From NCBI GenBank assembly GCA_021129835.1, contig JAJOKM010000043.1:1-32068 (forward strand): 32,068 nt of DNA. The letters run 5' to 3'. Both the position numbers and the translations under genes were made by a program. Within the stretch, counting starts at the first letter, position 1. Every line of letters starts with the position of its first letter. Source of the stretch: Thermodesulfovibrionales bacterium. Lineage in GTDB: Bacteria; Nitrospirota; Thermodesulfovibrionia; Thermodesulfovibrionales; Dissulfurispiraceae. Under the pieces are notes generated by a model. That model searched no databases and was not told the DNA's origin. It saw only the letters and a program-made list of their open reading frames with translations. This document shows positions 3,110-32,068 of this stretch, one piece after another.

Positions 3110-3260
3110 GTAGTAGTTCACCCCACCCTATCCCTCCCCCTTTGGAAAAGGGGGATTCAGGGGGATTAAGGGGGATTTTCAGATAAATATTCATTATAAA
3201 ATCTCCCCTCACCCCTCTTTGCCAAAGAGGGGAAGAAAGAAAATATAGGTGAACTATTAC
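3110..3260. repeat. MITE-like element B1 (GTAGTAGTTCACC ... GGTGAACTATTAC termini)
   Basis: The 13-nt termini are inverted and match at 12 of 13 positions. Internal hairpins are TCCCCC..GGGGGA and CCCCTCTTT-GCC-AAAGAGGGG. A C-run motif CCCC-A-CCC-TAT-CCC-T-CCCCC lies at 3121-3140, which is a G4 motif on the minus strand. The element fills the murJ to MBL-hydrolase spacer. Confidence 0.8.
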
Positions 3261-4076: not shown

Positions 4077-4150
4077 GGCGGTGTAGCTCAGCTGGTAAGA
4101 GCATGCGGCTCATATCCGCAGTGTCCGGGGTTCAAATCCCTGCACCGCCA
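4077..4150 (+). tRNA. tRNA with CAT anticodon (elongator Met type; a lysidine-modified Ile2 is not excluded)
   Basis: A cloverleaf was folded by hand. The acceptor stem is GGCGGTG/CACCGCC, the D arm GCTC..GAGC, the anticodon stem TGCGG/CCGCA with loop CTCATAT, and the T arm CGGGG-TTCAAAT-CCCTG. The discriminator is A and no CCA is encoded. The G1-C72 pair argues against an initiator tRNA. Confidence 0.9.
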
Positions 4151-4189
4151 TCAACTGAAAAGCGCGAGTAACTACTCCGGTTATCAAGC

Positions 4190-4296
4190 TCAAAATTCAC
4201 GATTCACAATCTTTATCAGGGTATCAGGTTCAAGGTTCACTGTTCGATAGTTAACAACCTTTCAGAACCCTTGAACCGTAAACCTGAGACCTGAAA
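4190..4296. repeat. Heptad-periodic palindromic intergenic element (copy a)
   Basis: It reads AATTCAC GATTCAC ... AGGTTCA AGGTTCA CTGTTCG ... TTGAACC GTAAACC TGAGACC. Its core at 4225-4288 is homologous to 31934-32001. It lies between the convergent tRNA and slt genes. Confidence 0.85.
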
Positions 4297-4304
4297 TAGA
4301 TACC

Positions 4305-6458
4305 TTAGAAATGTCCCTTATATCTCTTGATGGCGGCTACATCAATGTCTCCACTTGCCCGCATATATTCAAAATGATTAGTCAGCACCCTTATAACATA
4401 ATTTCGCGTTTCTCGGAATGGTATGTTTTCTATGAATTCATCAATCGCGGTGTAGTTTCCCCTTTCCACCCATATCTTTACATTGCTCGCTCCTGCATTA
4501 TATGCTGCAAGAGCTATGGGGATATAGTTAAAAATGTCTAAACGATTTCTTAGATAATAGGTGCCCAGAAGGATATTGGTCCTTACATCATAGAGGTCGT
4601 CAATACTTGCGATTTCTTTGCCGATATATCCAGAAACTCTTTGTGCGGTTTTAGGCATCAACTGCATTAATCCTCTTGCTCCGGCGACTGACCTTGCATT
4701 AGGGTCAAATTTCGATTCCTGTCTAATTACTGCAAGAATTAAGAGTGGGTCTATCTCTTTTTTCTTTGAGGCCTCTTCAATCTCTGGCAGAAATGCCATA
4801 GGAAAAAGTATTTCGTGCGGCCTTTCACCACGCGGAACTCGCGAAATAAGTCTGATGGCCATTCTATAATTTCCAAGCTTTCTCAGACGAGAGCTTAGAT
4901 ATATAAGTTCACTGCGAGATGGATCTTTCCCCGATAGGTGTATTAATTCTGAAATTGCTTCTCTCTTGAATCCAAGCGCTGATAGAATGTCAACCCTCTC
5001 CACTGATGGTAAAGAGGAGGGCAGAAGTGCAACTGGTTGATATGCTATTTCTTCGATGCCAGGTATCTTCTGATTATTCCTCAGCATCGACATGAATACA
5101 TAAAAATCATGGTCTGGACTGCCTGTTAACCGATATGTCATTGGCAATTCTTGTCTGCCTAATATCTCAGCGCACCTGTTCTTCCAATAAAGGTACCTGG
5201 TGCTACCATACCTCTTATAGAGTTTCGAGAATATCTCATAGGCGTCTTTGTGGTTTCTCGATAAAAAGTATGTCCAGCCCTTTGCCCATAAGGCGCCCCT
5301 TTTTTTAGACGGAAACTCTGATATCACCATGTTGAAGATTTTTATTGCGCCTTCAATGTCTCCCCCTGCCCTTTTTTTCCTCAGCCCATGAGCAATTAAT
5401 ACAGGTACAACGCCTTCATCGCCTGCCTTTATCAATGCCGGCAATTCTGCCTCGAATATCTCCATATCACCTGCCCTAATGGCCAATCTAAATAAAGATC
5501 GTGCCCACCAAGAGTAGTTATTGAGTTCCCGATACAGCTCCGCAGCATCTCTGTAATATCTCTGCCTGAATAAAGAGAGGGCAAGTCCTCCTATTATTTC
5601 ATTCCTGAACTCCCCGCCATCATCTCTTTTCAGGGCCTCCTCGAAGGCTTTTTTTGATTCTCTGAACATCCTTGCCCTATTATGATTGTTGCCCCTCTTA
5701 ATAAGGTCTTCGATCGCTATGTCAGATGGCAATAATTTATTTAGTGCATCTTTTGACAGCGGTGATGTGGATCTAAATATCTCTCTAAAGACATCTGTTG
5801 CCTTTTTTGTCTCATCGTTTCTCTTAAGAAAAAGGGCATACGCATATTTTATCTCAAATTCACTTGGATAATCCCTGACAAAAGCTTCGAATAATTCAAC
5901 TGCATCCATACTGTTTTTCTCTATAAGGAGCTCTATTTCGAGCCTTTTTGCATCTCTGACTAGGGGGAAATCTCCATATTTATCCCTGATACTTCTCAGG
6001 TCAGATATGGCTCTGTTTATTTCTCCTTTATTTTTAAATGCCATTGCCCTCCACAAAAGGACGTAGTCGCCCAAAACAGGCAGTCTATTATAAGCTACCG
6101 TCAGGTAAGCTATCGCACCTTTATAGTCGCCCGCAGCAAGGCTGCTTTTTCCTGCTAAAAGGTAGTATGCCGCCTCATCTGATGGAATATTTCTGGTTTT
6201 ATCAGAAGCAGACGAGATTGCGGGTGAGATTAAAAACAATACCAAAGCGGTCAAGAGTAAGGAATTTTTGATGAAATGTAATAGTTCAGCTCCCCCTAAC
6301 CCCCTCCCGCCAGGGGTGGGGGAATGTTTATTGATAATATTCCATACTACATCCCCAAAAGGGCTGGTGACCTTTTGGGGACCCCTTAATTCCCTCCCTC
6401 TTGACGGGGGAGGGTTAGGGTGGGGGCGAACTATTGCCATAAAATGCATATTCAGCAT
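4305..6458 (-). CDS. slt: Soluble lytic murein transglycosylase (Slt70-like); start codon uncertain
   Basis: The C-terminal SLT domain carries the catalytic Glu motif AVIRQESKFDPNARSVAGARGLMQLMP and AAYNAG. The N-domain is long and alpha-superhelical. A signal-like segment KNSLLLTALVLFLISPAISSASD follows about 60 codons that are encoded by repeat B2. Confidence 0.88.
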   Translation of the reverse strand: MLNMHFMAIVRPHPNPPPSRGRELRGPQKVTSPFGDVVWNIINKHSPTPGGRGLGGAELLHFIKNSLLLTALVLFLISPAISSASDKTRNIPSDEAAYYLLAGKSSLAAGDYKGAIAYLTVAYNRLPVLGDYVLLWRAMAFKNKGEINRAISDLRSIRDKYGDFPLVRDAKRLEIELLIEKNSMDAVELFEAFVRDYPSEFEIKYAYALFLKRNDETKKATDVFREIFRSTSPLSKDALNKLLPSDIAIEDLIKRGNNHNRARMFRESKKAFEEALKRDDGGEFRNEIIGGLALSLFRQRYYRDAAELYRELNNYSWWARSLFRLAIRAGDMEIFEAELPALIKAGDEGVVPVLIAHGLRKKRAGGDIEGAIKIFNMVISEFPSKKRGALWAKGWTYFLSRNHKDAYEIFSKLYKRYGSTRYLYWKNRCAEILGRQELPMTYRLTGSPDHDFYVFMSMLRNNQKIPGIEEIAYQPVALLPSSLPSVERVDILSALGFKREAISELIHLSGKDPSRSELIYLSSRLRKLGNYRMAIRLISRVPRGERPHEILFPMAFLPEIEEASKKKEIDPLLILAVIRQESKFDPNARSVAGARGLMQLMPKTAQRVSGYIGKEIASIDDLYDVRTNILLGTYYLRNRLDIFNYIPIALAAYNAGASNVKIWVERGNYTAIDEFIENIPFRETRNYVIRVLTNHFEYMRASGDIDVAAIKRYKGHF
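6278..6437. repeat. MITE-like element B2 (GTAATAGTTCAGC ... GGCGAACTATTGC)
   Basis: The termini are inverted and match at 11 of 13 positions. A perfect central 10-bp hairpin pairs CCCCAAAAGG (6353-6362) with CCTTTTGGGG (6371-6380). A G4 motif GGGGG-A-GGG-TTA-GGG-T-GGGGG lies at 6406-6426. The element sits inside the annotated 5' end of slt. Confidence 0.8.
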
Positions 6459-6514: not shown

Positions 6515-7723
6515 TTAAAATTGCCTCAGATACTCCATGAAGGAATCAAAATTCCTCTTTGTCTCGACCATGCTGTCTCCGCCAAATTTTTCTAAAAAGG
6601 CATCAGCAATCACGATGGCCGTCATCGCCTCTCCAATAATCGAGGCCGAGGGAACTGCGCATGTATCTGAGCGTTCATATGCCGCCTCAAAAGGTCTTTT
6701 TGTAATTATATCCACAGAACTCAGTGGTCTTTTTAAGGTGGGTATTGGTTTCATTGATGCCCTCATGACTACAGGCATGCCATTTGTCATTCCTCCCTCG
6801 ATTCCTCCAGCATTATTTGTTTTTCTGTAAAATCCCATACCCGTCCCCTGCCCTCCGATTCTTGAGTCCTCAAAAAATACCTCATCCATAACCTCTGAAC
6901 CAAATCTTTCTGCCATCTTTAAGCCTGCTCCGACCTCAACAGCTTTTATTGCCTGAATAGAAAAGAGTGCCTGCGAAAGGCGAGCATCGAGTCTCTTGTC
7001 CCATTGTATATGGCTGCCGAGACCGGGGGGAACTCCTGCCGCAACTACTTCAAATACACCTCCAATAGTATCTCCATTGTCTGTTGCCCTGTCAATCAAT
7101 TTCATCATTTTCTGGCCTGCTTCTTCGATCGGACACCTTACAGGGGATGCGTCGACATTTTCGAGAAATTCATCTGAAATATAATCTGTAGTCCATGACA
7201 TTATATTTTCAGCCCTGATACTACCTATCTGGATAACATAGCTGCCGAGATTTATTCCAAACTCTGAAATAAATCTCTTTGCTACTGCACCGATGGCAAC
7301 CCGCATCGCTGTCTCTCTTGCACTGGCACGTTCAAGGATATTTCGTATATCTGTGTGTGAATATTTTAGGGCGCCTGCAAGGTCAGCATGGCCAGGCCTT
7401 GGACGGGTTACTGCAGGGATGGAGTCTTCATGTCTGCCTTCTGAAGACATACCCTCCTGCCAGTTTTTCCAATCCCTGTTTTCGATGAAGATAGATATCG
7501 GTGAGCCTGTGGTCTTCCCCCATCTTACGCCGGATGTTACCTCGGCGCAGTCATGCTCAATCTTCATTCTATCACCACGCCCATATCCCTTCTGTCTCCT
7601 TTTGAGCTCCCTGTCGATATCGTCTGGTGGTAGAGAAAGACCTGATGGAATTCCCTCGAGTATTCCTATTAACCCTTTCCCGTGGGATTCGCCTGAAGTA
7701 AGAAATCTGAGCCTACCCATCAT
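6515..7723 (-). CDS. aroC: Chorismate synthase
   Basis: The N-terminus MGRLRFLTSGESHGKGLIGILEGIP and the internal RPGHADLAG and GGIEGGMTNG motifs are present. The ORF is 402 aa. Confidence 0.95.
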   Translation of the reverse strand: MMGRLRFLTSGESHGKGLIGILEGIPSGLSLPPDDIDRELKRRQKGYGRGDRMKIEHDCAEVTSGVRWGKTTGSPISIFIENRDWKNWQEGMSSEGRHEDSIPAVTRPRPGHADLAGALKYSHTDIRNILERASARETAMRVAIGAVAKRFISEFGINLGSYVIQIGSIRAENIMSWTTDYISDEFLENVDASPVRCPIEEAGQKMMKLIDRATDNGDTIGGVFEVVAAGVPPGLGSHIQWDKRLDARLSQALFSIQAIKAVEVGAGLKMAERFGSEVMDEVFFEDSRIGGQGTGMGFYRKTNNAGGIEGGMTNGMPVVMRASMKPIPTLKRPLSSVDIITKRPFEAAYERSDTCAVPSASIIGEAMTAIVIADAFLEKFGGDSMVETKRNFDSFMEYLRQF

Positions 7724-7755: not shown

Positions 7756-7863
7756 AGGTTCACGGTTAACAGTTTACAGTCCGCGGTTTACGGTTAACAG
7801 TTTACGTTAACTGATAACTGGCAACTGATAACTATCCTTTATAACCGTGAACTGTGAACCTGG
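7756..7863. repeat. Heptad-periodic palindromic intergenic element (copy c)
   Basis: It reads GGTTCAC GGTTAAC AGTTTAC AGTCCGC GGTTTAC GGTTAAC AGTTTAC GTTAAC TGATAAC TGGCAAC TGATAAC ... CGTGAAC TGTGAAC. Positions 7798-7846 are identical to 23650-23698. Confidence 0.9.
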
Positions 7864-7945
7864 AATCTTTTTAACAACATTCTTTCTGTTTCAACTCTTA
7901 GTTGCACCATGCATTATCTATCCTTCATCCTCACCGGCGCACTGG

Positions 7946-9121
7946 CTATGGTCTTGTCATAACGGGTGTCTTCCTCTCTGCTTGTGCGGAGTGCGCAGAT
8001 AGGTCTTTTTTCTGTTCGTTCATTACCTGTGTCTGAAACATTATCCTGAGGTCGTTAGGATTGGAGCTCGCATCAAGGGCGTCTTCTTTTGAGAGGACAT
8101 TATCTTCGACTAATTTAAACAGGTGCTGGTTAATAGTCTGCATCTTGTAGAGCTCCGTTGACGATGCAATTGCCTTATCGATAGCGTCGAGCTTTCCATC
8201 GATAATCAATCTCTTTATTGTTGGAGTATTCATCATTATCTCCATTACAGCCACTCTGCCTAATCCATCTGATCGTTTCACTAATCTTTGCGTTATAACT
8301 GCTATTAATGACATTGCTATTTTTACCCTTATGTAGTTATGCATATCAGGCGGAAAGGAATCGATTATCCTGCTTATCGATTGCTTCGCATAATTTGTAT
8401 GGAGTGTGCTCAAGGCCAGATGTCCGGTATCGGCTGCTGATAGAACTGCGTGTATTGTCTCTGGGTCTCTCATTTCACCAACAAGTATTATGTCGGGGTC
8501 TTGCCTCATTGCCCTCTTAGTAGCTTCCGAAAATGAGCGCGTATCAATGCCTACTTCTCGCTGATTTATAGTGCACTTTTGATCTTCAATGATGTACTCC
8601 ACCGGGTCTTCGATGGTAACTATGTGTTTCTGAACATTTCGATTCAGATAGTCTATTATCGCTGCAAGGGTCGTTGTTTTACCGCTCCCTGTCGGGCCTG
8701 TAATGAGAATTAGCCCCTGTCTGCTGAGTGCTATCTCTTTTAAAACCTCCGGCAACCCGAGGTCATCCATACCCCTGGCTTTTGAAGGAATAATTCTCAT
8801 AACTGCGCCAATAGTGCCTAACTGGTAAAACATATTAACTCTGAATCTTGTCATGTTTTCTGCTACATATGAAAAGTCCAGTTCCAGCTCTTCCTCCAGT
8901 CTTTTTCTCTGAATGCCTGTAAGCATTGAGGATAAGATCTCCTCCATCTCCTTTTTTCTTACAAGAGGATATCCTGTGAGGTGCAGATCACCCTCTATCC
9001 TCATCAAGGGAGATCTCCCAACCTTTAGATGGAGATCTGACCCACCTCTTTCGACTAATGCCCTTAAATATCCTTCTATCTTCATATCTTTTTCAATAGC
9101 AGTTATCGGTTTACGGTTCAC
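7946..9121 (-). CDS. PilT-family type IV pilus retraction ATPase paralog (PilU-like)
   Basis: It has Walker A GPTGSGKTTT, Walker B/Asp box DPDIILVGEMRD and His box GHLALSTLHT. It lacks the PilT-specific AIxNLIREGK motif, having TIKRLIIDGK instead. The GTG start at 9121 lies inside a repeat, and ATG at 9085 (MKIEGYLRAL..) is an equally plausible start. Confidence 0.85.
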   Translation of the reverse strand: MNRKPITAIEKDMKIEGYLRALVERGGSDLHLKVGRSPLMRIEGDLHLTGYPLVRKKEMEEILSSMLTGIQRKRLEEELELDFSYVAENMTRFRVNMFYQLGTIGAVMRIIPSKARGMDDLGLPEVLKEIALSRQGLILITGPTGSGKTTTLAAIIDYLNRNVQKHIVTIEDPVEYIIEDQKCTINQREVGIDTRSFSEATKRAMRQDPDIILVGEMRDPETIHAVLSAADTGHLALSTLHTNYAKQSISRIIDSFPPDMHNYIRVKIAMSLIAVITQRLVKRSDGLGRVAVMEIMMNTPTIKRLIIDGKLDAIDKAIASSTELYKMQTINQHLFKLVEDNVLSKEDALDASSNPNDLRIMFQTQVMNEQKKDLSAHSAQAERKTPVMTRP

Positions 9122-9166
9122 GGTTCACGGTTAAAGAAACTGTAAACTGTAAACTGTAAACTGTCA
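9107..9166. repeat. Heptad-periodic hairpin (copy e) between pilT and the pilU-like gene
   Basis: The sequence is CGGTTTA CGGTTCA CGGTTCA CGGTT-AAAGA-AACTGTA AACTGTA AACTGTA AACTGTCA. Hand pairing on the plus strand gives 26 positions: 20 Watson-Crick, 4 G:T and 2 C/A mismatches. Confidence 0.85.
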
Positions 9167-10225
9167 TTTTGCTGATAATTTGAGTTTTAATGTATCAGGA
9201 TTATTGGTCTTGCCAAAGGCATCCTCAACTGTTATTAATTCACTCCTAACAAGCTCTGACAAGGATGTCTCGAAGGTGCACATCCCATATCTTGCACCAG
9301 TTTCTATAGAGCTATATATTTGATGGGTCTTCCCTTCCCTAATAAGGTTTGAAATGGCATTTGTGATTAGCATTACTTCTCTTGCTGCAACTCTGCCATT
9401 GCCGTCCATACGAGGCAACAGTTGCTGGCATATAACCGCCTGAAGTGTGGAAGCCAGTTGAACCCTTATCTGTCGTTGCTGGTGGGAGGGAAAGACATCG
9501 ATTATTCTGTCTATTGTCTGTGGCGCATTCTGGGTATGGAGTGTTGCAAATACCAGGTGTCCGGTCTCTGCTGCCGTGATAGCCAAAGAGATGGTCTCCA
9601 GATCCCTCATCTCACCTACCAGTATTACATCGGGGTCCTGTCTGAGTGCGTGTTTCAGGGCAATACTAAAAGAGACGGTATCTGCGCCAACTTCACGCTG
9701 TCTTATTATGCATTTTTTATGACTATAAACAAATTCTATCGGGTCTTCAATGGTTAATATGTGGTCATGCCGTTCTGAATTTATAATATTTAGCAGAGAT
9801 GCCAGAGTGGTAGTCTTTCCAGACCCCGTAGGCCCTGTGACCAGTACGAGCCCCCTTGGAAGTTTAGTCAGTGAGATTATTGCAGCAGATAGTCTTAAAT
9901 CCTTTGGTGATGGAATTTGACTTGGGATCAATCTCATTGCCGACTCAATGCTGTTCCTCTGGGAAAATACATTGATACGAAATCTTCCAATGCCTGGGAC
10001 GCCGTACGAAAAATCTATCTCGCGGTTTTCTTCAAACCTCGCAATCTGATCCTGATACATTATACTGTAGATCAACGCCTTTGCATCTTCTACTGATAGT
10101 TCAGGAAAATCCGGCAGTGGCAGTATCTGCCCGTTAACCCTGATCATCGGGGGTTTTTTGACAACAATATGTATGTCAGATGCCTTTGCATCTACAGCAG
10201 CATGAAGGATGTTAATTATATCCAT
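9164..10225 (-). CDS. pilT: Type IV pilus twitching-motility ATPase PilT
   Basis: It has Walker A GPTGSGKTTT, DPDVILVGEMRD, GHLVFATLHT and the PilT signature AISNLIREGKTHQI. I place the start at ATG 10225 (MDIINILHAAVDAKASDIHI), preceded by GGGGG. The track's upstream 27 codons are encoded by a repeat. Confidence 0.92.
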   Translation of the reverse strand: MDIINILHAAVDAKASDIHIVVKKPPMIRVNGQILPLPDFPELSVEDAKALIYSIMYQDQIARFEENREIDFSYGVPGIGRFRINVFSQRNSIESAMRLIPSQIPSPKDLRLSAAIISLTKLPRGLVLVTGPTGSGKTTTLASLLNIINSERHDHILTIEDPIEFVYSHKKCIIRQREVGADTVSFSIALKHALRQDPDVILVGEMRDLETISLAITAAETGHLVFATLHTQNAPQTIDRIIDVFPSHQQRQIRVQLASTLQAVICQQLLPRMDGNGRVAAREVMLITNAISNLIREGKTHQIYSSIETGARYGMCTFETSLSELVRSELITVEDAFGKTNNPDTLKLKLSAK

Positions 10226-10243
10226 ATCGCCCCCTTGGTATGA

Positions 10244-10331
10244 GATGTGAGGACGAGAAGGTGTGAAGATGAGAAGGTGTGAAGGTGTGAATTCACAACT
10301 TCTCATCTTCTCGTCTTCTCATCTTCACAAC
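10244..10331. repeat. Imperfect palindrome of short tandem units centred on GTGAATTCAC, in the divergent pilT/secA spacer
   Basis: GAAGATGAGAAG (10265-10276) is the exact reverse complement of 10299-10310. GACGAGAA (10252-10259) pairs with TTCTCGTC (10308-10315). The central 10-bp palindrome lies at 10287-10296. Confidence 0.85.
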
Positions 10332-10403
10332 TGTACTCATATTACCCATGTGCCCTTTGATTACCTGCTTGCATAATGCACCAAAAGTGATTTATTATAA
10401 AGT

Positions 10404-13082
10404 ATGCTCAGTTTTTTAAGCAAGATATTCGGCACAAAAAACGAAAGGGAATTAAAAAGATTATTAGAGATAGTAGATGGTATAAACAAGCTTGAATCAC
10501 AGGTCGCATCCCTTAGCACCGAGCAACTCGCCGCAAAGACAGAAGAATTTAAGAACAGACTAAGCTCAGGCAAAACAATTGATTCTATTTTAAAGGAATC
10601 CTTTGCCGTTGTGAGAGAGACATCAAGGCGTCTCTTAAACATGCGACACTTCGATGTTCAGTTAATTGGCGGCATTGTGCTTCATGAAGGCAAGATAGCC
10701 GAGATGAAGACAGGCGAAGGTAAAACCCTTGTTGCCACCCTGCCTATTTATTTAAACGCCCTTGAGGGCAGAGGGGTACACCTGGTAACAGTAAATGATT
10801 ACCTCGCAAAAAGGGATATCCTCTGGATGGGACCTATATATCACTTTCTGGGACTTTCTGTAGGCTTAATACAGCATGGCAACTCATTTATTTTTGATCC
10901 CGCCTATGTTTCTGATGATAAAAGATTTAATCATTTGAAGCCATGCACCCGGAGCGAGGCATATCTGGCAGATGTAACATATGCTACCAATAATGAACTT
11001 GGCTTTGACTATCTTAGAGATGGAATGAAATATGATCTGTCTGATTATTGCCTCAGGGAGTTAAATTATGCGATTGTGGATGAAGTCGACTGCATCCTTA
11101 TAGATGAGGCGAGGACACCACTCATAATATCAGGACCGGCAGAAGAGTCGACCGATAAATATTACAAGATAGACAGAATAATCCCAAACCTAAAAGCGGA
11201 TGAGGATTTCAAGATAGATGAAAAACTCAAAACCGTCATTCTTACAGAATCTGGTAGCTCTAAGGCAGAAAAGCTCCTCGATGTCAGCAATCTGTATGAT
11301 CCAGGCAATATAGGGCTTGTGCATCATGTACTCCAAGCAACAAAAGCTCATCACCTGTTTGCAAAAGATGTGGATTATGTGGTGAAGGACGGAGAGGTGC
11401 TAATTGTAGATGAGTTTACAGGAAGGCTTATGCAAGGAAGGAGATGGAGCGATGGCCTGCATCAAGCTGTCGAGGCCAAAGAAGGAGTTAAAATAGCAAG
11501 TGAAAATCAGACTCTTGCTACCATTACCTTTCAGAACTATTTCAGGATGTACAACAAGCTCGCAGGTATGACAGGTACTGCGGATACCGAGGCGGCAGAA
11601 TTTGCGCAGATATATAATCTTGATGTTATTGCTGTGCCTACAAATAAACCAATGCTGAGAACAGAAAATCCTGATAGGATATATAAAAATCATAATGCAA
11701 AGTTCGGCGCCTTGATAAATGAAATTAAAGATCGCCATGAGAAAGGGCAACCTATTCTTATAGGAACTACATCAATCGAGAAATCAGAGGTAGTGAGTCA
11801 CTTATTAAAAAAGAATAAGATAAACCATTCAGTCTTGAATGCCAAACATCATGAAAAAGAGGCCGATATTATTGCCCAAGCCGGAAGGTTAGCTGCAGTA
11901 ACAGTTGCTACAAACATGGCGGGCAGAGGTACAGATATTGTTCTGGGCGGTAATCCAGAAAGGCTCAAGATGGAATTCTTGAAAGACAAAAAAAGGTATT
12001 CAGAGGAAGACCTTGAGTCAGCATATAAGAAGGCAAAAGAGATATGCGACAGAGAAAGAGAGCAGGTTTTGGCCGCCGGAGGGCTGCACATAATCGGCAC
12101 CGAACGTCACGAGTCACGGAGAATAGACAATCAGCTTCGAGGCAGGGCAGGTAGGCAGGGTGATCCGGGGTCGTCAACCTTTTATCTCTCTTTGGAAGAT
12201 GACCTTATGAGAATCTTCGGTTCTGACAAGATAAACAGCTTGATGAACATGCTGCAGATAGATGAAGAGACGCCCATCGAGAATAAAATGGTCACAAAGG
12301 CTATAGGAAATGCGCAAAAAAAGGTCGAGGCGCACCACTTTGATATGAGAAAGCATCTACTGGATTATGACGATGTAATGGACAACCAGCGGAAGGAGAT
12401 ATACTCATTCAGACGAGATATATTGCAAGGTAAATCTTTACAGGACAAGATACTGGAAATGATAGATGGCGAAGTGGATGAAATTCTCTCTGTTTATTGT
12501 CCGGAAGATGCAGATATCGATGAATTGGACTTAGATGGCCTTGTTGACGCTATATATGGGTTGTTTTCGATTAGATTGCAGATAGATGATTTTGAAGCCA
12601 TTGATGACATAAGGGAATTGATTATATCAAATGTAAAAGAGGTATATAAGAATAAGGAAAAGGAAGCGGATCCTAAGTTTATGCGCTATATCGAAAAGAT
12701 GATATTCCTACAGGTGATCGATACCCGCTGGAAAGATCATCTCCTCAGTATAGACCATCTAAAGGAGGGTATAGGGCTGAGAGGGTACGCCCAGAGAAAT
12801 CCCCTTGTCGAGTATAGAAAAGAGGCCTTTGGTCTTTTTGCAGACATGTCTCGAAGGATTACCACTGAGGTCCTAACAAGGCTGTTCAAGATCCAGATAA
12901 GACGTGAAGATGAAAATGCTATAAAGATGGAATCTCATCAGAATCTTGTTTATTCTAAGAAAGCAGAAAGCAGCGAGGATTCAAAGCAGCAACCTATACA
13001 GAAAGGGAAAAAGATCGGAAGAAATGACCCCTGCCCTTGTGGAAGTGGTAAGAAGCATAAGAAGTGTTGCGAAACAAGATAG
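10404..13082 (+). CDS. secA: Preprotein translocase ATPase SecA
   Basis: The N-terminus is [10 protein letters not shown]. Motor motifs are [14 protein letters not shown] and [19 protein letters not shown]. The C-terminal zinc-binding tail is [13 protein letters not shown]. The ORF is 892 aa. Confidence 0.97.
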
Positions 13083-13099
13083 CCTGACTATGCTTTATC

Positions 13100-13224
13100 G
13101 TAATAGTTCACCTGTATTTTTCCCCCTCTTTGGCAAAAAGGACTTGCTATGTCTAATTCCCCTCTTGAGAGGGGTGGACGCGGAGCGGACGGGGTGTGTA
13201 ACAGTGGTGAGAAATACACACCCC
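13100..13224. repeat. Degenerate B-family element (B3) downstream of secA
   Basis: The left terminus GTAATAGTTCACC (13100-13112) is identical to the family consensus. Internal features are the hairpin CCCCTC-TTGA-GAGGGG and the 9-bp stem GGGGTGTGT..ACACACCCC (13191-13224). The right terminus is only weakly recognisable (GGTGAGAAATACAC). Confidence 0.6.
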
Positions 13225-13309
13225 TAAATCCCCTCTTGATAAGCTCATCATGTTTCGCATTTTTGACTTAACACAGGGAGGGCATAACAGGCCGAAATAA
13301 ATATTTAAA

Positions 13310-13493
13310 GGATACTGTCATTCCCGCTCAAAGGACTGCGGGGTAGGCAATTTAAATATCAAATATCAAAATGCAAAATGTTTTCAAGAAAATAATAATG
13401 ATGTTTTTTAAAAACTTTTTACGACTTCATCAATTTTGATATTTAAATTTTGATTTTTGATATTATTTAAGGTGCGGGACCGTGGAAATGACA
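13310..13493. repeat. GTCATTCCCGC-family copy C2 interrupted by a nested ~125-bp AT-rich element
   Basis: Positions 13310-13343 and 13472-13493 together match the reverse complement of 285-350. The intervening DNA is bounded by perfect 15-bp inverted repeats, AATTTAAATATCAAA (13349-13363) and TTTGATATTTAAATT (13435-13449). Confidence 0.8.
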
Positions 13494-14912: not shown

Positions 14913-15193
14913 CGGTTTTCACCTCCTCATCTTTAAAAAATAGAGCTGCCAAGCAGTCTCTTCTTCAAAAAAACAAGTGTTAACATATTGATTATTCATA
15001 TCTTTATTTAGTTTCATAAGAATTTAGATTTACAAGGAATAATACAATTAAACAAATAAAAATTCAAGTGCTCAGATGTTGAAACAAGTTCAGCACATAA
15101 CCTCCAGGGGCAATATGCAGACTTTTGTAAGGGGCCTTCATTTAAGCTATATCGAGAAATTAGATTGCCATATCTAAAAAGAAATGTTACCAT

Positions 15194-15323
15194 AATTGAT
15201 GAAGTCGTAAAAAGTCTTAAAAAGCATTTTTCCGTCATTCCGACTTGCTCGGAATCGTTCCCTGTCTTTAAGAAGGATTCCCGACAAGCGGGAATGACGA
15301 CTTTTTGCGAGTTTATCATAATT
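15194..15323. repeat. Palindromic GTCATTCC-family element C3
   Basis: The termini AATTGATGAAGTCGTAAAAAGTC (15194-15216) and GACTTTTTGCGAGTTTATCATAATT (15299-15323) are imperfect inverted repeats. The central long hairpin pairs CGTCATTCCGACTTGCTCGGAATC (15233-15256) with GATTCCCGACAAGCGGGAATGACG (15276-15299). Confidence 0.8.
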
Positions 15324-21216: not shown

Positions 21217-21276
21217 GCAAGCAAGGTATGAGTTAATGGGTTAAAGGCAGTTTCCAGTTACCCGTTGACAGTCTCC

Positions 21277-21325
21277 AATTTCTAATTTCTAATTTCTAAG
21301 GTATATGCGAACCTTGAACCTTGAG
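21277..21325. repeat. Two short heptamer tandem arrays in the mnmG / HMA-like convergent spacer
   Basis: AATTTCT x3 lies at 21277-21297, and GAACCTT x2 plus GAG lies at 21309-21325. Confidence 0.85.
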
Positions 21326-21702: not shown

Positions 21703-21720
21703 CTTAAGTTTTGAGTTATA

Positions 21721-21758
21721 AGTGTTGAGTTTTGAGTTAACATCCAAAACTCAACACT
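21721..21758. repeat. Perfect 14-bp hairpin within heptad-like units (GTTTTGA GTTATAA GTGTTGA GTTTTGA GTTAAC)
   Basis: AGTGTTGAGTTTTG (21721-21734) pairs with CAAAACTCAACACT (21745-21758) around the loop AGTTAACATC. It lies immediately upstream of the HMA-like gene. Confidence 0.85.
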
Positions 21759-21787
21759 CAACTATGCCTAATTAGACATCCTGAATT

Positions 21788-22081
21788 TTATAGGATGTCT
21801 CTCTTTGCTTTCCTGTATGTTTTACATTTTGGATAGTCAGAACATCTGAACCTCAAAGCTATATCTTCTCTTTTATAAAGGTTCATTGACTTTCCACATT
21901 CAGGACAAGTAGGTCTGTCCTTAATGCCAAGTCTCTTAGCGCCGACGGCAAATTGTCTCCCACACAAAAGGCATAGAAAGCGTTGTCTTCCTGTCTTTGA
22001 CTTCCCGTATTTGTAAAAAACATCTAAACCGCAAGTTGGACATTTAATTGCAGCATCGTTTAATACTCGCAACACTGTCAT
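21788..22081 (-). CDS. Small double zinc-ribbon protein (transposase IS1/IS1595-type N-terminal ribbon plus topoisomerase-type C4 finger)
   Basis: CPTCG..x19..CLLCGRQF with YGKSKTGRQRFLC resembles the InsA/IS1595 zinc ribbon. CPECG..x17..CSDYPKC resembles zf-C4_Topoisom. The ORF is 97 aa and no transposase catalytic domain lies nearby. Confidence 0.6.
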   Translation of the reverse strand: MTVLRVLNDAAIKCPTCGLDVFYKYGKSKTGRQRFLCLLCGRQFAVGAKRLGIKDRPTCPECGKSMNLYKREDIALRFRCSDYPKCKTYRKAKRDIL

Positions 22082-22210: not shown

Positions 22211-23563
22211 TCATTGATTATCGGGAAGATGTGCCACTTTATCAGCTCTCAAAGGTAAATATACTAATTTGCTGCTGGTAAGCCCCTCAAGGGCATTAAT
22301 ATAAGTCAACTGCCTCTCTTTGACGCGATTGAAGTCTGACATGTAATCTGGCCTTACTGATTCGGCTGCCGGAAAATCTAGGGTCAAAAAGTTTACCGGC
22401 CTTCCCCATTGGCGGACCCCAAAACTCAGATGAGGCCCAGTAGAAAGACCTGTAGAACCAACATATCCTATTATCTGTCCCTGCTCTACCCTGACGCCCT
22501 TCCGTATACCCTTCCCATAGCGAGATAGATGCCCATAAGTGGTAGTAAATTCACGGCTATGGCGTATTTCGACAAAGTGTCCATAGTCTCCTCTCCAACC
22601 AGCATGAGTGACTACTCCATCGCCTACTGCCATTATAGGTGTGCCTGTAGGGGCAGCAAAATCGGTGGCGGGGTGTGGACGATAAATCCCCAAAACAGGA
22701 TGAAACCTCCGAGGAGAAAAGTGGGAGCTAATGCGGTAATAATTTAATGGGGAGCGCAAAAACTTTTTCTTTAAAGACTCACCCTGCGGAGTGTAATAAC
22801 CCTTACTTCCCGCTGGGCATTCAAAGAAGATAGCCGTGTAAGTCCTTTCGCCTCTCTGATATTGGGCAGATAATATTCGCCCTTGCCTAATTGGTATATC
22901 ATCTTTATAGTATCGCTCCCAGACTATCGTGAAGATATCTCCAGGGCGAGTCTCACTAAAAAAGTCTATCTGCCATGCAAAGATATTAGCAAATCGCACA
23001 ACCATTTCAGGAGCTAAATTCTCTCTCTTCATAGCTTTATATAAGGAACTCTCGATTTCACCTCTTATCCCAACCATATGTTTATCTAAGGAGACCTCTT
23101 GCTTTGAGGCTACTAATTCTCCGTCTTCTGATTTCTCGACCAGATAAATCTGCGTGAGAGAAACCTGGTATTTGAAACTCTTGAAATCGCCGCATCCATA
23201 AAAGGTGATTTCATACTTATCTCCTGGGCGACCCCTTTTAAGATTAAACACAGACCGCATCGATTCTTCTAAGGCAAGAATTTTGCTCGACGGTATGCCG
23301 TTTCTTCTTAGAGAAACATAGAGAGGTTCGCCCGCCCTTATCTCCCCTTTTATTACCCTTGTGGGAAGAGAGAGTTTTGGTAGTTGTTGCTCCACCTCAT
23401 CACTCGATAGCTTTTCTGCCAATACTTCCTTTACAGATGCCGTCTCTGCCGGCAGATGGGCAGGAGGTACCGTTTCTGATCTGAAGGCAAAAAGTCCTAC
23501 AATAATTAGTAAACTCATGACACAAGCTAGAAGAAACCACTTCTGATATTTTTTACTTTTCAT
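22211..23563 (-). CDS. M23 family peptidoglycan endopeptidase-like protein with a degenerate HxH motif
   Basis: It has an N-terminal TM or signal segment, HxxxD (HPATD), YGHLS, and GSTGLSTGPHLSFGV where GPHLHFE is expected. A strong RBS GGAGGAG is present. Confidence 0.85.
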   Translation of the reverse strand: MKSKKYQKWFLLACVMSLLIIVGLFAFRSETVPPAHLPAETASVKEVLAEKLSSDEVEQQLPKLSLPTRVIKGEIRAGEPLYVSLRRNGIPSSKILALEESMRSVFNLKRGRPGDKYEITFYGCGDFKSFKYQVSLTQIYLVEKSEDGELVASKQEVSLDKHMVGIRGEIESSLYKAMKRENLAPEMVVRFANIFAWQIDFFSETRPGDIFTIVWERYYKDDIPIRQGRILSAQYQRGERTYTAIFFECPAGSKGYYTPQGESLKKKFLRSPLNYYRISSHFSPRRFHPVLGIYRPHPATDFAAPTGTPIMAVGDGVVTHAGWRGDYGHFVEIRHSREFTTTYGHLSRYGKGIRKGVRVEQGQIIGYVGSTGLSTGPHLSFGVRQWGRPVNFLTLDFPAAESVRPDYMSDFNRVKERQLTYINALEGLTSSKLVYLPLRADKVAHLPDNQ

Positions 23564-23588
23564 CCATCTCCTCCTGGTATAATCCTCT

Positions 23589-23737
23589 GTAACTACTCAG
23601 GTTCAAGGTTCAAGGTTCACGACAAAAAAGGTTCCACGTTCACAGTTCACAGTTTACGTTAACTGATAACTGGCAACTGATAACTATCCTTTATAACCTC
23701 GAACCTCGAACCTCGAACCTTGAACCTGAGTAGTTAC
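23589..23737. repeat. Heptad-periodic palindromic element (copy d) with perfect 20-bp terminal inverted repeats
   Basis: GTAACTACTCAGGTTCAAGG (23589-23608) is the exact reverse complement of 23718-23737. The arms are GTTCAAG x2, GTTCACA x2 and CTCGAAC x3. The core at 23650-23698 is identical to 7798-7846. Confidence 0.92.
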
Positions 23738-23743
23738 CTCTAT

Positions 23744-25282
23744 TCAATTAGCAGCCCACTTGATTATATCATCAACCATTGCCTTTATGGTGGCTTCTTG
23801 TGGCATTATGGTGACTTTAAGCCCGGCAACTTCTATTGCCTTTGTCGTAACAGGGCCTATGGAGGCTATAGCTGTGCCTCTCAAGAAATCTATTGCCTCT
23901 TCTCCTACTATATCGATAAAGTTATTGAACGTTGCAGCGCTTGTAAATGTTGCTATCGAAATCCTGCCCTCCTTTAAAAATTGCTTGAGCCTTTTGCCGT
24001 GCTTTTCGAGTTTGATAGCACGATATGTGGCCGGTGTATCTATCTTTCCTCCTAATTCCCTTACTTTTTGGGGAAATATTTCCCTCGCAATATCAGCCCT
24101 CGGAAGTAATATCTTTAATCCCTCAAGATTTTTATCTCCTCCTGCCTCCTGAACACTATGCCCTTTAACAAACGCCATTATTAAGCCCTCTGCGTTGAAC
24201 TCTTTTGGAACAAGATCTATTTTAATACCATAATTTCTGATTGCCTCAGCAGTCTTTGTGCCTATAGCGCATATCTTAATCCCCTTTAAGTCTCTAATAT
24301 CCTTGTCTCGATCAACAAACCTCTTTATGAAATACCTAAACCCGTTTGCACTTGTAAACATGAGCCAGTTGTAATCTTCTATCCTGTCTATTGTGCTGTC
24401 TATTTCAGAATAACTCGCTGGCGGAACTATTTTTGTTGTCTGAACCTCAAATATCTCGGCACCTAAATCCTCAAGTGGTCCATAATCCGGCGTATATTTC
24501 CTTGTTATTAAAATCCTGCTGCCGAAAAGAGGTCTATTTTCATACCACTTTATGGTATCTCTTAGCCTGACAACATCTCCGACTATCATTACCGCAGGTG
24601 ACCTCATCTTGCTCTCTTTTACAACTCCCGCAATATCTCTCAGGCTGCTCACAATAGTCTTCTGGTTAGGCCTTGTTCCCCACCTTACTACTGCCACTGG
24701 TGTATCTGGAGATTTTCCATGACTTAGAAGTCTTGAGGTAATGCCGCCCATATTTTTGATGCCCATCAAAAAGACAAGGGTATCGACACTGCTTGATAGC
24801 TTTGGCCAGTCTATGGAGCTTTCAGGCTTTGTTGCATCTTCATTGCCCGTGATTACTGCAAAAGATGAAGAATACCTTCTGTGGGTTAGTGGAATACCTG
24901 CATATGCAGGCACTGCTATCGAGGAACTAACACCAGGAACTATCTCAAACTCTATGCCCTCTTGTGCAAGGATCTCTGCCTCTTCACCGCCACGGCCAAA
25001 TACAAATGGATCACCGCCTTTTAACCTGCAGATAATTTTACCCTTTTTTGCCCTGTCCACGAGTGCCTGATTGATCTCACTCTGGGTCATTGCGTGGTGT
25101 CCTCCGCGTTTTCCGGCATAGATAAACTCTGCATCATGGTCGATATAATTCAGTATCTGGGCATTTAGATGGAAGTCGTATACCACAACCTCAGTCTTTT
25201 GAAGACATCGCATGCCTTTAACTGTCAGCAGCCCTATATCGCCAGGCCCTGCGCCTATGAAATAAATCTTGCCTTTTCTCAT
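23744..25282 (-). CDS. cobA-hemD: Bifunctional uroporphyrinogen-III C-methyltransferase / uroporphyrinogen-III synthase
   Basis: The N-terminal SUMT motifs are KIYFIGAGPGDIGLLTVKG and GGDPFVFGRGGEE. The C-terminal ~250 aa is HemD-like. The gene overlaps hemC by 4 nt. Confidence 0.9.
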   Translation of the reverse strand: MRKGKIYFIGAGPGDIGLLTVKGMRCLQKTEVVVYDFHLNAQILNYIDHDAEFIYAGKRGGHHAMTQSEINQALVDRAKKGKIICRLKGGDPFVFGRGGEEAEILAQEGIEFEIVPGVSSSIAVPAYAGIPLTHRRYSSSFAVITGNEDATKPESSIDWPKLSSSVDTLVFLMGIKNMGGITSRLLSHGKSPDTPVAVVRWGTRPNQKTIVSSLRDIAGVVKESKMRSPAVMIVGDVVRLRDTIKWYENRPLFGSRILITRKYTPDYGPLEDLGAEIFEVQTTKIVPPASYSEIDSTIDRIEDYNWLMFTSANGFRYFIKRFVDRDKDIRDLKGIKICAIGTKTAEAIRNYGIKIDLVPKEFNAEGLIMAFVKGHSVQEAGGDKNLEGLKILLPRADIAREIFPQKVRELGGKIDTPATYRAIKLEKHGKRLKQFLKEGRISIATFTSAATFNNFIDIVGEEAIDFLRGTAIASIGPVTTKAIEVAGLKVTIMPQEATIKAMVDDIIKWAAN

Positions 25283-27143: not shown

Positions 27144-29820
27144 TTACAGACTGAGTTTGAACATATCTAATATCTCCTTATTGTCCATTTCAGTTATCCA
27201 GTTTTCATTTGAACTCTGGATTATATTACGGCACAAGGTCGATTTTTCTTCCAGCATTGAGTCGATCTTCTCCTCTACTGTCCCCTTTGTTATAAATTTG
27301 TGCACAACTACCTTTTTCCTTTGACCTATCCTGAACGCCCTGTCAGTTGCCTGATTTTCGACGGCAGGGTTCCACCATCTATCAAAATAGATAACATGAT
27401 TTACATTTGTCAAATTGAGTCCCACACCCCCAGCCTTAATCGACAGGACAAAAAATGGGACATACTCTTCACTCTGAAAACGTTCGATGATCTTTTTTCT
27501 CTGCATCACCGGGATGCTTCCGTGCAGAATCAAACCTTCTCTTTTAAAGACGGTCGTTAAAAAATTACAGAGTGGTCCTGCTATTTCTTTAAACTGCGTA
27601 AAGATTAATACCTTTTCTCTCTTTTCGAAGATAGTTTCGCAAATCTCCCGTAACCGTTGAAATTTACCGCTATCGTTTTCTATATAATCTCCGCTGCCAA
27701 GGTACTGATCTGGATGATTGCATATCTGTTTAAATTTCATGAGGGAGGCAATTATAATCCCTCTTCTCTGAATACCTGTCAGCTCCTCTAAACCCCGCTT
27801 AATATCATCTACGAGTTTTTTTATATGAAACGATCTGTCTCTTGGTCAGTCCAGAATAGGTCTTCATCTCTATTTTGTCAGGCAGGTCTGATATGACCGA
27901 TTTATCTGTCTTTAATCGTCTTAATATATATGGACTGATCACCTTTTTTAGCCTTCCATATCCGTAAGAGTCATTTTTTATCTTCTGGGCATACTCTGCA
28001 AATTCCTTTGAAGTCCCTAATAACCCTGGATTGATAAAATCATAGAGGGACCACAGGTCTGAGAGGCTGTTTTCTATGAGGGTGCCGGTCAGAACTATCC
28101 TATTGCGCGATTTCAGCCTTTTTACTGCCCTTGCCTGTTTTGTCCCTGGATTCTTGATTGCCTGTGCTTCATCTAAGATGACATAGTTCCATGAATAGGA
28201 CTTTATTGCCTCATATTTTTGGATTAAGGAGTATGTTGTAATGATAAGGTCATATCTATCTATAAATGAGTCGTCTTTCATGATGGTCTTACCCTTAGAG
28301 TTCACTCCAGTATGGGCGATAAAGAATTTCAGAGAGGGCGCAAAACGGATTATTTCATTCTGCCAATTTGAGAGTAGAGAAGCAGGTATGATTAGCAGGT
28401 TGGCGCCTTCGGTCTTTTTTGTCTTTAAGTCGTCTAAAAAGGCAAGAATTTGAACAGTTTTACCTAATCCCATATCATCTGCCAGGCATGCCCCGAATTG
28501 CAGCGAATGCAAAAAATGCAACCAGTTTAATCCATTCTGCTGATAAAGACGTAGTTTGGCCTTGAACCCTTTCCCCGGAAGTGTTGGCTTAATCATGGCC
28601 GGATTTCTTAATTTAGCGATAACCGATTCAAGCCACTCCCCGTTTGAGACTTCCAGTATGCCGTCACCATGGATATCCCCAAAGATCGATTTAGCGCCTA
28701 ACTGCATTTTCATGGCCTCCTTGAGGCTCAAACCGCCATTTTCTATCACTCCTTCAGTCTTTTCGAGCAGATCGAGCACCTGATTCAGTTTTTCAGAGTT
28801 CACCTCGACCCATTTCCCTTTGATATAGGCAAGTCCTTCCGATTCTTCTAATATCCTTCTTGCCTCTTTTTCTGTAATAACGGTATCTCCTAAAAGGATT
28901 TGTGCGTCGAAATTTAGGATAGAGTCCATGCCAAGATAGTTTGGAGAGGTATTCCCGATGGCGACAACAAGTTTAAACGAAGAGGCCCCACCCTTCCACC
29001 AGTCGGGTATCCTGCACAAGATTCCCGAGTCTTCATAGATCGCAATCTCTTTCAGGAATTTAAAGGCATCTTTTGGAGTCCATGCCAGAGGATGAAAGAC
29101 TTCTCCAGAGTCTAAAAGGTCTGCTACCAAATCACTCTTTTTAGCAGCTAAATGAATAGTTGCAAGGATATCTAACAGCTCCTGGCTGTGATGCCTATAT
29201 TCCTCAAGTGCAAATTTCAGAGGGATATGCCTTGATCTCCCCTGCTTGCTTAAACTCGTTGAATAGGTTGCCAGAAAGGCAAATGGATATTCCTCTGTTT
29301 TTCTGTTTTCGACAAGGTGGAAATAGACCCTGCCTATAAGGTGAACATCGGGGCTATAGGTCTTTAAGAAACCCTCTACAGTGCCGTCATACCCTTTTAT
29401 CATCTGCCGGAATTTGGTCTCTACCCGTGACCATAGAAATTTCAAGAGGGCCTCATCTAGATATTCAGCGCCTGTCATAAAAGGGGCTTTTTCTAATACT
29501 TCTTTAATCTTTTTGCCCTCCAGGGAAATATGGATTTTCTCCCTTATCTGTTCAATATCCTGGACTTGGCGTAATTTTGCTGCGAAAATACCTGTAAAAT
29601 TCCTCCAGAACTCCAAAGAGACAGACAGGGGTATCTCTCTATCAGAAAGGCCTAAAAATAATAAGGCAGAGTAAATATCTTCCTGGAATCGTCTGTATAT
29701 CTCTTTCTCTAAAACCTGTCTGCCCTTGTCTGCTTTCGCATCTGGCTTCGTATCTGAATCTATCCATTCCAACTGCATAATGCCATTCGGCATTAGAGCT
29801 GCTGTTAATTCCCGATTCAT
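27144..29820 (-). pseudogene. SNF2-family helicase, split by a 1-nt frameshift in a 7-nt homopolymer
   Basis: The ORF at 27805-29820 carries the N-terminal region plus LRLYQQNGLNWL, DDMGLGKT and ILDEAQAIKN. The ORF at 27144-27740 carries helicase-C motifs (GGVGLNLTNVNHVIYFDRWWNPAVENQATDRAFRIGQ). Deleting one T from the run at 27816-27822 joins them through ..YKKLVDDIKRGLEELTGIQRRGIIIASLMKFKQICNHP. Confidence 0.8.
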
Positions 29821-31925: not shown

Positions 31926-31933
31926 CTTTTAAC

Positions 31934-32001
31934 AAGGTTCCAGGTTCAAAGTTCACGGTTCACGGTTAACAACCCTTCAGAACTTGAACCGTGAACCTGA
32001 G
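31934..32001. repeat. Heptad-periodic palindromic element (copy i), homolog of 4225-4288
   Basis: The sequence AAGGTTCCAGGTTCAAAGTTCACGGTTCACGGTTAACAACCCTTCAGAACTTGAACCGTGAACCTGAG aligns with copy a along its whole length. It lies immediately upstream of the hem operon. Confidence 0.85.
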
Positions 32002-32015
32002 CAGTTATCTTTATT

Positions 32016-32068
32016 GGTTCTTCTCCAAATTTAGTAGAGATTAGGTAGTGTAGGGCTTTATGCCCGTA
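32016..32068 (+). repeat. Third copy of the edge module seen at 59-115 and 198-250, cut by the window end
   Basis: GGTTCTTCTCCAAATTTAGTAGAGATTAGGTAGTGTAGGGCTTTATGCCCGTA matches the reverse complement of 198-250 at 51 of 53 positions. Confidence 0.9.

Follow-up and report, generated by a model that had tools for sequence, protein, structure and literature searches.

Cyanobacteria have been known since 1990 to carry tandem heptamer repeats. Those of heterocystous cyanobacteria, the short tandemly repeated heptamers (STRR), were reportedly described by Mazel and co-workers in that year, with CCCCAGT, TTGGTCA and CAACAGT as the units of STRR1 to STRR3, and small dispersed repeats (SDR) of 21-27 nt lying within the heptamer arrays of Nostoc are said to have been described by Elhai and co-workers in 2008. 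REP sequences are conserved imperfect palindromes of 20-40 nt repeated hundreds of times, and a REPIN consists of two inverted REPs with a spacer. Here we compare with these systems a 149-bp intergenic palindrome, element E, built of heptads and found in a 32,068-nt stretch (contig JAJOKM010000043.1; hereafter the window) of the genome of an uncultured Thermodesulfovibrionales (Nitrospirota) bacterium. On sequence grounds E appears to be one member of a dispersed, mosaic, species-specific family, and its arrays change by whole heptads between strains.

A published system close to E is that of the TAACTGA intergenic direct repeats of Beggiatoaceae, Cyanobacteria and five Bacteroidetes (MacGregor 2015, Front Microbiol 6:1397, PMC4679880), which put heptamer repeats in Beggiatoaceae and Bacteroidetes on record in 2015. 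These repeats comprise two or more tandem units, optionally split by a related heptamer, and lie mostly just upstream of start codons, with forward orientation as the BOGUAY majority pattern (PMC4679880). They show 7-nt indels between Cyanothece strains, are read as a C-terminal tail in some open reading frames (ORFs), and include one indirect repeat only among 170 sets (PMC4679880). The REP, BIME and REPIN elements (Bertels and Rainey 2011, PMC3116915) are the palindromic systems considered below. We found no published description of heptamer repeats in Nitrospirota.

Anatomy of element E

Element E lies in a 180-nt intergenic spacer (23564-23743) between two genes on the minus strand. Its parts and immediate surroundings are as follows.

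23589-23737, no strand assigned: element E, composite heptad palindrome without ORF, 149 bp
23589-23618: left outer arm, made up of the terminus GTAACTACTCAGG and then GTTCAAG heptads
23625-23654: inner left arm; the right arm of element B (7843-7872) is complementary to it at 90%
23649-23698: core, 50 nt identical to 7797-7846 in element B, containing the central GTTAAC and the non-heptad spacer TATCCTTTATAACC
23660-23687, plus strand: TAACTGA-type array (TAACTGA, TAACTGG, CAACTGA, TAACTAT), antisense to both neighbouring genes
23708-23737: right outer arm, complementary to the left one at 97%
23561-23576, minus strand: M23 start codon (23563-23561) and AGGAGG ribosome-binding site (23576-23571), 13-25 nt beyond E
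23744-23746, minus strand: cobA-hemD stop codon TGA (23746-23744), 6 nt from E

An earlier sequence-only reading of this DNA had parsed E into heptads, and the parse is correct, omitting only a 6-nt GTTTAC unit before GTTAAC. The element is symmetrical: its heptads have the form GTTnnnn left of the centre and nnnnAAC right of it, and the two series join at GTTAAC (23658-23663). TRF called four period-7 arrays within E, the inner one with consensus TAACTGA (3.7 copies, 78% matches), and the outer arms are built on the unit GGTTCRA. The perfect 20-bp inverted termini reported by that reading are exact (GTAACTACTCAGGTTCAAGG at 23589-23608 is the reverse complement of 23718-23737), and complementarity extends to 30 nt with a single mismatch (97%; 23589-23618 against 23708-23737); none of 100 shuffles of the window yielded any such match. 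Nor is there any ORF of at least 40 aa wholly inside E, in agreement with its description as ORF-less. An 85-aa TTG ORF that starts in the right terminus was discounted; it is antisense to cobA-hemD.

The neighbouring genes had been correctly named: they are an M23/Csd3 peptidase (minus strand, 23563 to 22211) and a cobA-hemD fusion (minus strand, 25282 to 23744). E had been said to fill the spacer between them exactly; it nearly does so, but 6 nt are free at the cobA-hemD stop and 25 nt, including the AGGAGG site, at the M23 ATG (23563). An exact protein look-up with the M23 protein gave no identical record.

The one long imperfect hairpin that had been proposed was recovered when both strands were folded. 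As RNA the 180-nt spacer folds at -79.5 kcal/mol (z = -10.9) on the minus, gene-sense strand and at -65.1 kcal/mol (z = -8.8) on the plus strand; folded as DNA it gives -36.7 (z = -9.4). Significant hairpins were found in six of the seven window elements that were folded, with z between -3 and -11.

No T/U run follows the stem on either strand, the terminator scan was blank within E, and the promoter scan gave no match there. Rfam at its gathering score matched only tRNA-Met in the window; at an E-value threshold a plant miRNA hairpin model gave one weak chance match within E, scoring 24 bits where its gathering score is 130. E is unlikely to be an intrinsic terminator, since no U run stands behind its stem, and is likewise unlikely to be a promoter or a gene.

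The element family, its variation and other repeats

Three further elements in the window (A, B and F) and one copy beyond it (G) share unique modules with E, namely the terminus GTAACTACTCMGGTT and/or the 50-nt core. The cores of E and B agree at 50/50 nt. The terminus RTAACTRCTCMGG occurs four times in the window against 0.16 expected, in E at either end, in A on the left (4168) and in F on the right (31996), and A and F have a second core in common, GTTAACAACCYTTCAGAAC, plus the right-end sequence of E. In sister strains a further copy, G, is found shortly before the point where the window begins (L120 14900-15000); it has the terminus RTAACTRCTCMGG, GTTyACG heptads and a diverged core. Counting a 7.4-kb extension, ~39.5 kb of this species was read, and among the five related copies there only E has both termini, while A, F and G have one each and B none. 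The related copies vary in length and content, and those other than E are partial mosaics.

Because the copies share unique non-heptad modules in varied combinations, they derive from one another and did not arise independently; they are related by descent, as mosaics of a 15-nt terminus, a 50-nt core and complementary arms. Neither terminus nor core was found in ~150 kb of relatives at 75-77% identity, so the family is confined to this species or its genus. Five related copies in ~39.5 kb would extrapolate, as an inference and not a measurement, to a few hundred per genome. A metagenome scan with GATAACTATCCTTTATAACC gave six matches, all chance, with heptads absent nearby, and a viral scan with a 17-mer of the terminus gave 11, all in unrelated coding sequence.

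E is one of eight period-7 elements in the window, all of which, together with one period-8 palindrome, lie in its 9.7% of intergenic DNA. A tandem-array scan of the window at lags 4-12 returned five regions at lag 7 and one at lag 8; there were zero arrays at lags 4-6 and 9-12, and 100 Markov resamples also gave zero. The elements other than E are these.

4168-4295: family copy A, directly 3′ of tRNA-Met, with left terminus GTAACTACTCCGG and core GTTAACAACCTTTCAGAAC common to copy F
7757-7872: family copy B, in the pilT2-aroC spacer, with the 50-nt core as in E and different heptad arms
9100-9163: heptad hairpin C, in the pilT1-pilT2 spacer, GGTTyAC x4 facing AAACTGT x4
10243-10332: period-8 palindrome in the pilT1 5′ leader, 8-nt units of GATGAGAA / CTTCTCAT types
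13349-13456: upstream of the YkuD gene, AT-rich inverted arrays of heptads (AAATATC / GATATTT)
21248-21324: heptad arrays D, AATTTCT x3.3 and GAACCTT x2, without hairpin
21704-21762: heptad hairpin D2, AGTTTTG / CAAAACT units with centre GTTAAC, ending at the HMA gene start
31933-32008: family copy F, in the 5′ leader of ccsA/hemX, with right terminus CCTGAGCAGTTAT and an A-type core

The period-8 palindrome sits between a conserved promoter-like region and the ribosome-binding site, and is missing from the orthologous spacer in two related genomes (L124 and L125). Copies A and G adjoin tRNA genes (4077-4150 in the window, with A from 4168; 14726-14800 in L120, with G from 14900). The arm heptads GGTTCAA / GGTTCGA are identical to the consensus of the tRNA T-arm, and the tRNA-Met here has GGTTCAAATCC; this may be coincidence.

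The sequence-only reading had likened E to STRR, aptly; both have tandem 7-nt units, several unit families per genome and a dispersed intergenic distribution. Doublets of the STRR1-3 units, in any rotation, do not occur in the window; E also differs in host phylum, and it has, beyond tandem units, inverted arms, conserved termini and a non-heptad core that is shared. As is reported for the SDRs, a short conserved module (here the 50-nt core and 15-nt terminus) recurs in variable heptamer arrays and forms hairpins with its surroundings, although the modules of the E family are longer than SDRs.

Strain variation was followed in sister metagenome-assembled genomes (MAGs) 99.1-99.6% identical to the window, found by exact look-ups of window proteins and compared by whole-locus alignment. 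Sister MAGs include GCA_023271705.1, GCA_023271075.1, GCA_023270995.1, GCA_023272055.1 and GCA_023271365.1. In strain L119 (GCA_023271075.1) the GAACCTT heptad at 23715-23721, in the right arm of E, is absent and the spacer measures 173 nt, not 180 nt. The same strain lacks an AATTTCT unit at 21277 in element D, and another, L122, lacks an AAACTGT unit at 9137 in hairpin C. These three single-heptad indels hit the window's three top-scoring period-7 arrays (TRF scores 59, 56 and 46). Apart from these, the strain alignments show only indels of a single nucleotide, a change of 10 nt within an 18-mer array and one gene-internal, in-frame insertion of 24 nt. Arrays gain and lose whole heptads between strains, as replication slippage predicts; the heptads had been called slippage-prone, and one of the exact 7-nt indels lies inside E itself. 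The sequence-only reading held that a mobile or structured family would fail if no other copies existed, or if related genomes had the sequence at this locus only and with a constant heptad number; related copies and the heptad loss in L119 were both found.

The perfect 20-bp termini are a strain-specific state: in the L119 allele the perfect terminal match is 16 bp, and the spacer still folds at -76.2 kcal/mol. E is present in 3/3 strains covering the site. Density of single-nucleotide polymorphisms (SNPs) within elements is about that of the background in these alignments, and element B shows no compensatory SNPs between strains; its two SNPs (7791 and 7826) are not paired together.

Turning to more distant genomes, the best match of cobA-hemD is 99% identical, and the next, from Dissulfurispira and relatives, are at 77%. 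In these 77% aa relatives CobN follows cobA-hemD and the cobA-hemD to M23 junction does not exist, so an empty site for E cannot be shown. The secA / pilT1 / pilT2 synteny is conserved; in L124 and L125 the spacer between the two pilT genes has 14-15 nt and holds a ribosome-binding site, against 78 nt with hairpin C here. At the DUF2149-CobN junction one relative (L003) has a 95-nt heptad hairpin exactly between stop and start codons, a second (L007) has a direct array and is part-filled, and two others (L002 and L005) are empty. At places where this species has such hairpins, the spacers of related genera are compact and 'empty', and the heptad units vary from species to species.

In-frame heptad arrays were also seen inside variable surface loops of hemC and cobA-hemD in the 75-77% aa relatives, replacing the loop at approximately equal length.

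L002, gene-internal in-frame arrays: 9342-9395 and 11100-11145
L003, gene-internal in-frame arrays: 9746-9787 and 11101-11147
L005, gene-internal in-frame array: 9231-9283
L007, gene-internal in-frame arrays: 5893-5946 and 7661-7713

Units at one loop differ by species (AATTTCA x4 versus CAGAAGT x4; GCCTTCA x4 versus GGGTCAA x4), and the window species has ordinary sequence at those hemC and cobA-hemD loops. Arrays are mostly gene-internal in L002 and L003 and all intergenic in the window. The PilT2 orthologues (L124 and L125, 5001-6482) have 493 aa versus 379 aa here (window 7946-9085), the extra part being an apparently duplicated N-terminal domain.

Several short repeat families are carried by this genome. 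A second dispersed family, unrelated to heptads, occurs at 57-115, 198-252 and 32014-32068 of the window and at 11090-11420 of L120; the copies at 198-252 and 32014-32068 are 96% complementary over 55 nt, with motif GGTAGTGTAGSSCTTTATGSSCGTA and a small GC hairpin, and one copy abuts element F. There are dispersed inverted intergenic pairs at 328-359 / 13301-13332 (32 nt, 97%), 3214-3260 / 13100-13141 (~45 nt, 88-95%) and 13406-13441 / 15188-15223 (36 nt, 89%). An 18-nt tandem repeat, GCCTAAAGTATTTAAAGT x2.9, occupies positions 1-57, where L120 has an extra 10 nt. The window starts and ends within repeats and the GCA_023271075.1 contig starts inside element F (at the equivalent of 31952), which suggests that assemblies break at elements because these are multi-copy.

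Two genes also drew attention. A SNF2-family helicase gene (27144-29820) is inserted between hemA and hemC relative to other genera and is split into ORFs 27805-29820 and 27144-27740, with strain 1-nt indels at 27816/27822 and 27942; a frameshift, a pseudogene or an assembly error is possible. In L120 the SLT/TPR transglycosylase gene has a 24-nt in-frame insertion, GAGCCTGCCCCGCACTTGATGCGG, at window position 6417 (725 versus 717 aa).

Heptad vocabulary across phyla

For the inner units of E the TAACTGA repeats (PMC4679880) are a closer published match than STRR. The inner array at 23660-23687 consists of TAACTGA with one-base variants such as TAACTGG and CAACTGA, as in the 'split' sets. Both systems are intergenic, change in 7-nt steps between close strains, and carry stop codons in all three frames when the units run forward; in both, an array can be read as protein, the reverse-orientation, TCAGTTA-type arm of copy G forming the last residues of ClpB as a C-terminal tail. 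E differs in having no exact TAACTGA doublet in any rotation, although the rotated CTGATAA-CTGGCAA-CTGATAA is a split set. Its array is one arm of a larger palindrome whose outer-arm unit differs (GGTTCRA), and it runs on the plus strand, pointing at the cobA-hemD stop codon and not at a start codon. The Nitrospirota host is beyond the published range.

We scanned 185,579 representative genomes with a 22-mer of this array, CTGATAACTGGCAACTGATAAC, and found it in 93 stretches (L009-L101) against ~0.07 expected; the window's own species is not among them. Hosts include Acidobacteriota, Chloroflexota, Desulfobacterota, Bacteroidota, Cyanobacteria, Poribacteria, Parabeggiatoa, Calditrichia, Verrucomicrobiota, Planctomycetota, Firmicutes and one Asgard MAG. 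The 22-mer had no match in IMG/VR viral contigs. With a vocabulary of four units (T/C-AACTG-A/G), about 1/64 of three-unit windows would give it, and the flanks of the matches are unrelated, so the matches indicate a shared vocabulary and not a shared element. Horizontal transfer of the E core was rejected as the source of the 22-mer, the flanks being unrelated and the shared vocabulary sufficient.

In the 93 stretches, Y-AACTG-R arrays extend over more than 10 phyla and often form hairpins with a complementary upstream CAGTTnn array. Arrays ending 0-40 nt before the start of a same-strand ORF number 36/93, and those in the opposite orientation 1/93. Of 25 strong hairpins beside starts, 18 fold better on the sense strand (Wilcoxon p = 0.006, post hoc). 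E departs from this start-codon pattern, its TAACTGA strand being antisense to both neighbours. The TAACTGA-type vocabulary is far wider than its published distribution and its start-codon bias recurs in many lineages; with so wide a spread, any functional explanation must be general.

Origin and possible role of element E

We lean towards reading E as a mosaic heptad palindrome of STRR/TAACTGA type that evolves by slippage and module exchange and is probably a passive RNA or DNA hairpin. Copying, or recombination between arrays that keeps to the heptad register, may have spread the family, as may a trans-acting enzyme, and its elements may persist because intergenic spacers tolerate them. Since cobA-hemD and M23 are co-directional and 180 nt apart, E is probably transcribed between the genes. 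If so, it would form a hairpin of about -80 kcal/mol, most likely a passive one, acting as a 3′-exonuclease barrier or an RNase processing site that would separate the fates of the hem and M23 messages.

Three observations weigh against this reading. The better-folding strand varies between elements (antisense for B and C, sense for E and D2, and equal on both for F), an inconsistency that fits a DNA-level palindrome without RNA-level selection. Elements occupy convergent, divergent, co-directional and 5′-leader spacers, and their presence in every spacer type speaks against any single, specific role as RNA. The 20-30-bp termini of E are intact and flanked by CTCT/CTCT, as those of a miniature inverted-repeat transposable element (MITE) would be.

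It is possible, if on the unlikely side, that E has no function and is a neutral or slightly harmful by-product of genome-wide heptad-generating mutation, kept where harmless. Arrays confined to tolerant sites (intergenic DNA here, in-frame surface loops of hemC and cobA-hemD in relatives), folding that shows no consistent strand preference, near-background SNP density and patchy presence among relatives are what this would produce, but the complementary pairing of the hairpins, the shared unique modules and the start-codon bias in other phyla are left unexplained by it.

We consider it unlikely that E is a MITE, with termini bound by a transposase encoded elsewhere that inserted it between cobA-hemD and M23, the heptads being merely internal sequence. 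The sequence-only reading had called E MITE/REP-like, and the family of structured repeats that this implied is borne out by the shared modules, but mobility is not, with one two-ended copy of five and no strain that lacks E. E does resemble MITEs such as Correia/CREE, ERIC and Nezha in its size of ~150 bp, lack of an ORF, inverted termini of 20-30 bp, intergenic location and probably co-transcribed hairpin; 13-15 nt of its terminus recur at three other loci, and spacers filled here are compact in related genera. The check for target-site duplication that had been proposed turned up only the CTCT at both ends of E, 4 nt with a chance probability of ~1/256 and no second two-ended copy for comparison. 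Other copies are not uniform two-ended units of similar length, and a consistent target duplication was not seen; all variation seen is 7-nt slippage and not presence/absence; and the terminus itself consists of a heptad of TAACTnn type together with arm heptads. Neither the window, as had been stated, nor the 7.4-kb extension contains a transposase or RAYT gene. The lack of another two-ended copy, of presence/absence polymorphism and of a transposase in ~39.5 kb weakens the MITE reading, and the evidence found gives no support to classical cut-and-paste transposition of E. Separately, a 97-aa zinc-ribbon protein encoded beside hairpin D2 (21788-22081, minus strand) has no catalytic domain and matches only transposase-type (IS1595, InsA N-terminal) and topoisomerase-type zinc-ribbon domains.

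A protein-binding switch, in which the heptads are units for a single-strand nucleic-acid binder with a footprint of ~7 nt and regulate M23 translation or stability, seems doubtful to us. A cold-shock or S1-type binder of heptads was proposed by MacGregor (PMC4679880), and proposals have also been published in bioRxiv 10.1101/2022.06.06.494920. The idea draws on the cross-phylum excess of arrays before same-strand starts and the better folding of their sense strand, and in the window D2 and F end 1-9 nt ahead of start codons. At E the TAACTGA strand has the wrong sense for both neighbours and a normal AGGAGG site stands between E and the M23 ATG. We know of no protein that binds heptad arrays, and a single sequence-specific binder is unlikely because heptad sequences differ widely between elements and species.

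Still less probable is a REPIN- or BIME-like origin, in which two inverted REP-like arms are recognised as a hairpin and spread by a RAYT (IS200/IS605-type Y1 transposase). E shares with REP, BIME and REPIN elements a dense, mosaic, intergenic distribution of palindromes, paired inverted units with a spacer that give a long hairpin, and a likely effect on mRNA as a 3′ barrier; GTAG/CTAC is present in its termini (GAGTAGTTAC / GTAACTACTC), and several other dispersed palindromic families occur in the same window. The arms of E are tandem heptads that vary between copies, and not a single conserved REP, and RAYT is absent from the DNA read. That E serves as a Rho-independent terminator or attenuator, closing the hem operon transcript ahead of M23, is very improbable: a very stable hairpin does begin 6 nt past the cobA-hemD stop codon, but in place of a short GC-rich stem with a U run it has a stem far longer than those of terminators and no such run, and like elements occur also in 5′ leaders and divergent spacers.

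A bolder idea, to which we give little credence, is that heptad-array hairpins are a widespread class in more than 10 phyla, made and maintained by a dedicated mechanism working in 7-nt steps and placed preferentially upstream of starts as protein-titratable RNA switches, one heptad per footprint of an OB-fold or cold-shock-type domain, with the same process rewriting surface loops in frame in some Thermodesulfovibrionales. If this were true, E would represent in Nitrospirota a post-transcriptional system that is general and so far undescribed, and would be more than slippage-prone filler.

E is a clean Nitrospirota example of heptamer repeats, and as a palindrome with conserved termini and a shared core it joins the 'simple repeat' and 'dispersed element' views of such sequences. 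The sister strains provide direct evidence that the arrays change by single heptads, and the set of near-identical MAGs allows copy number, insertion sites and population slippage rates to be measured.

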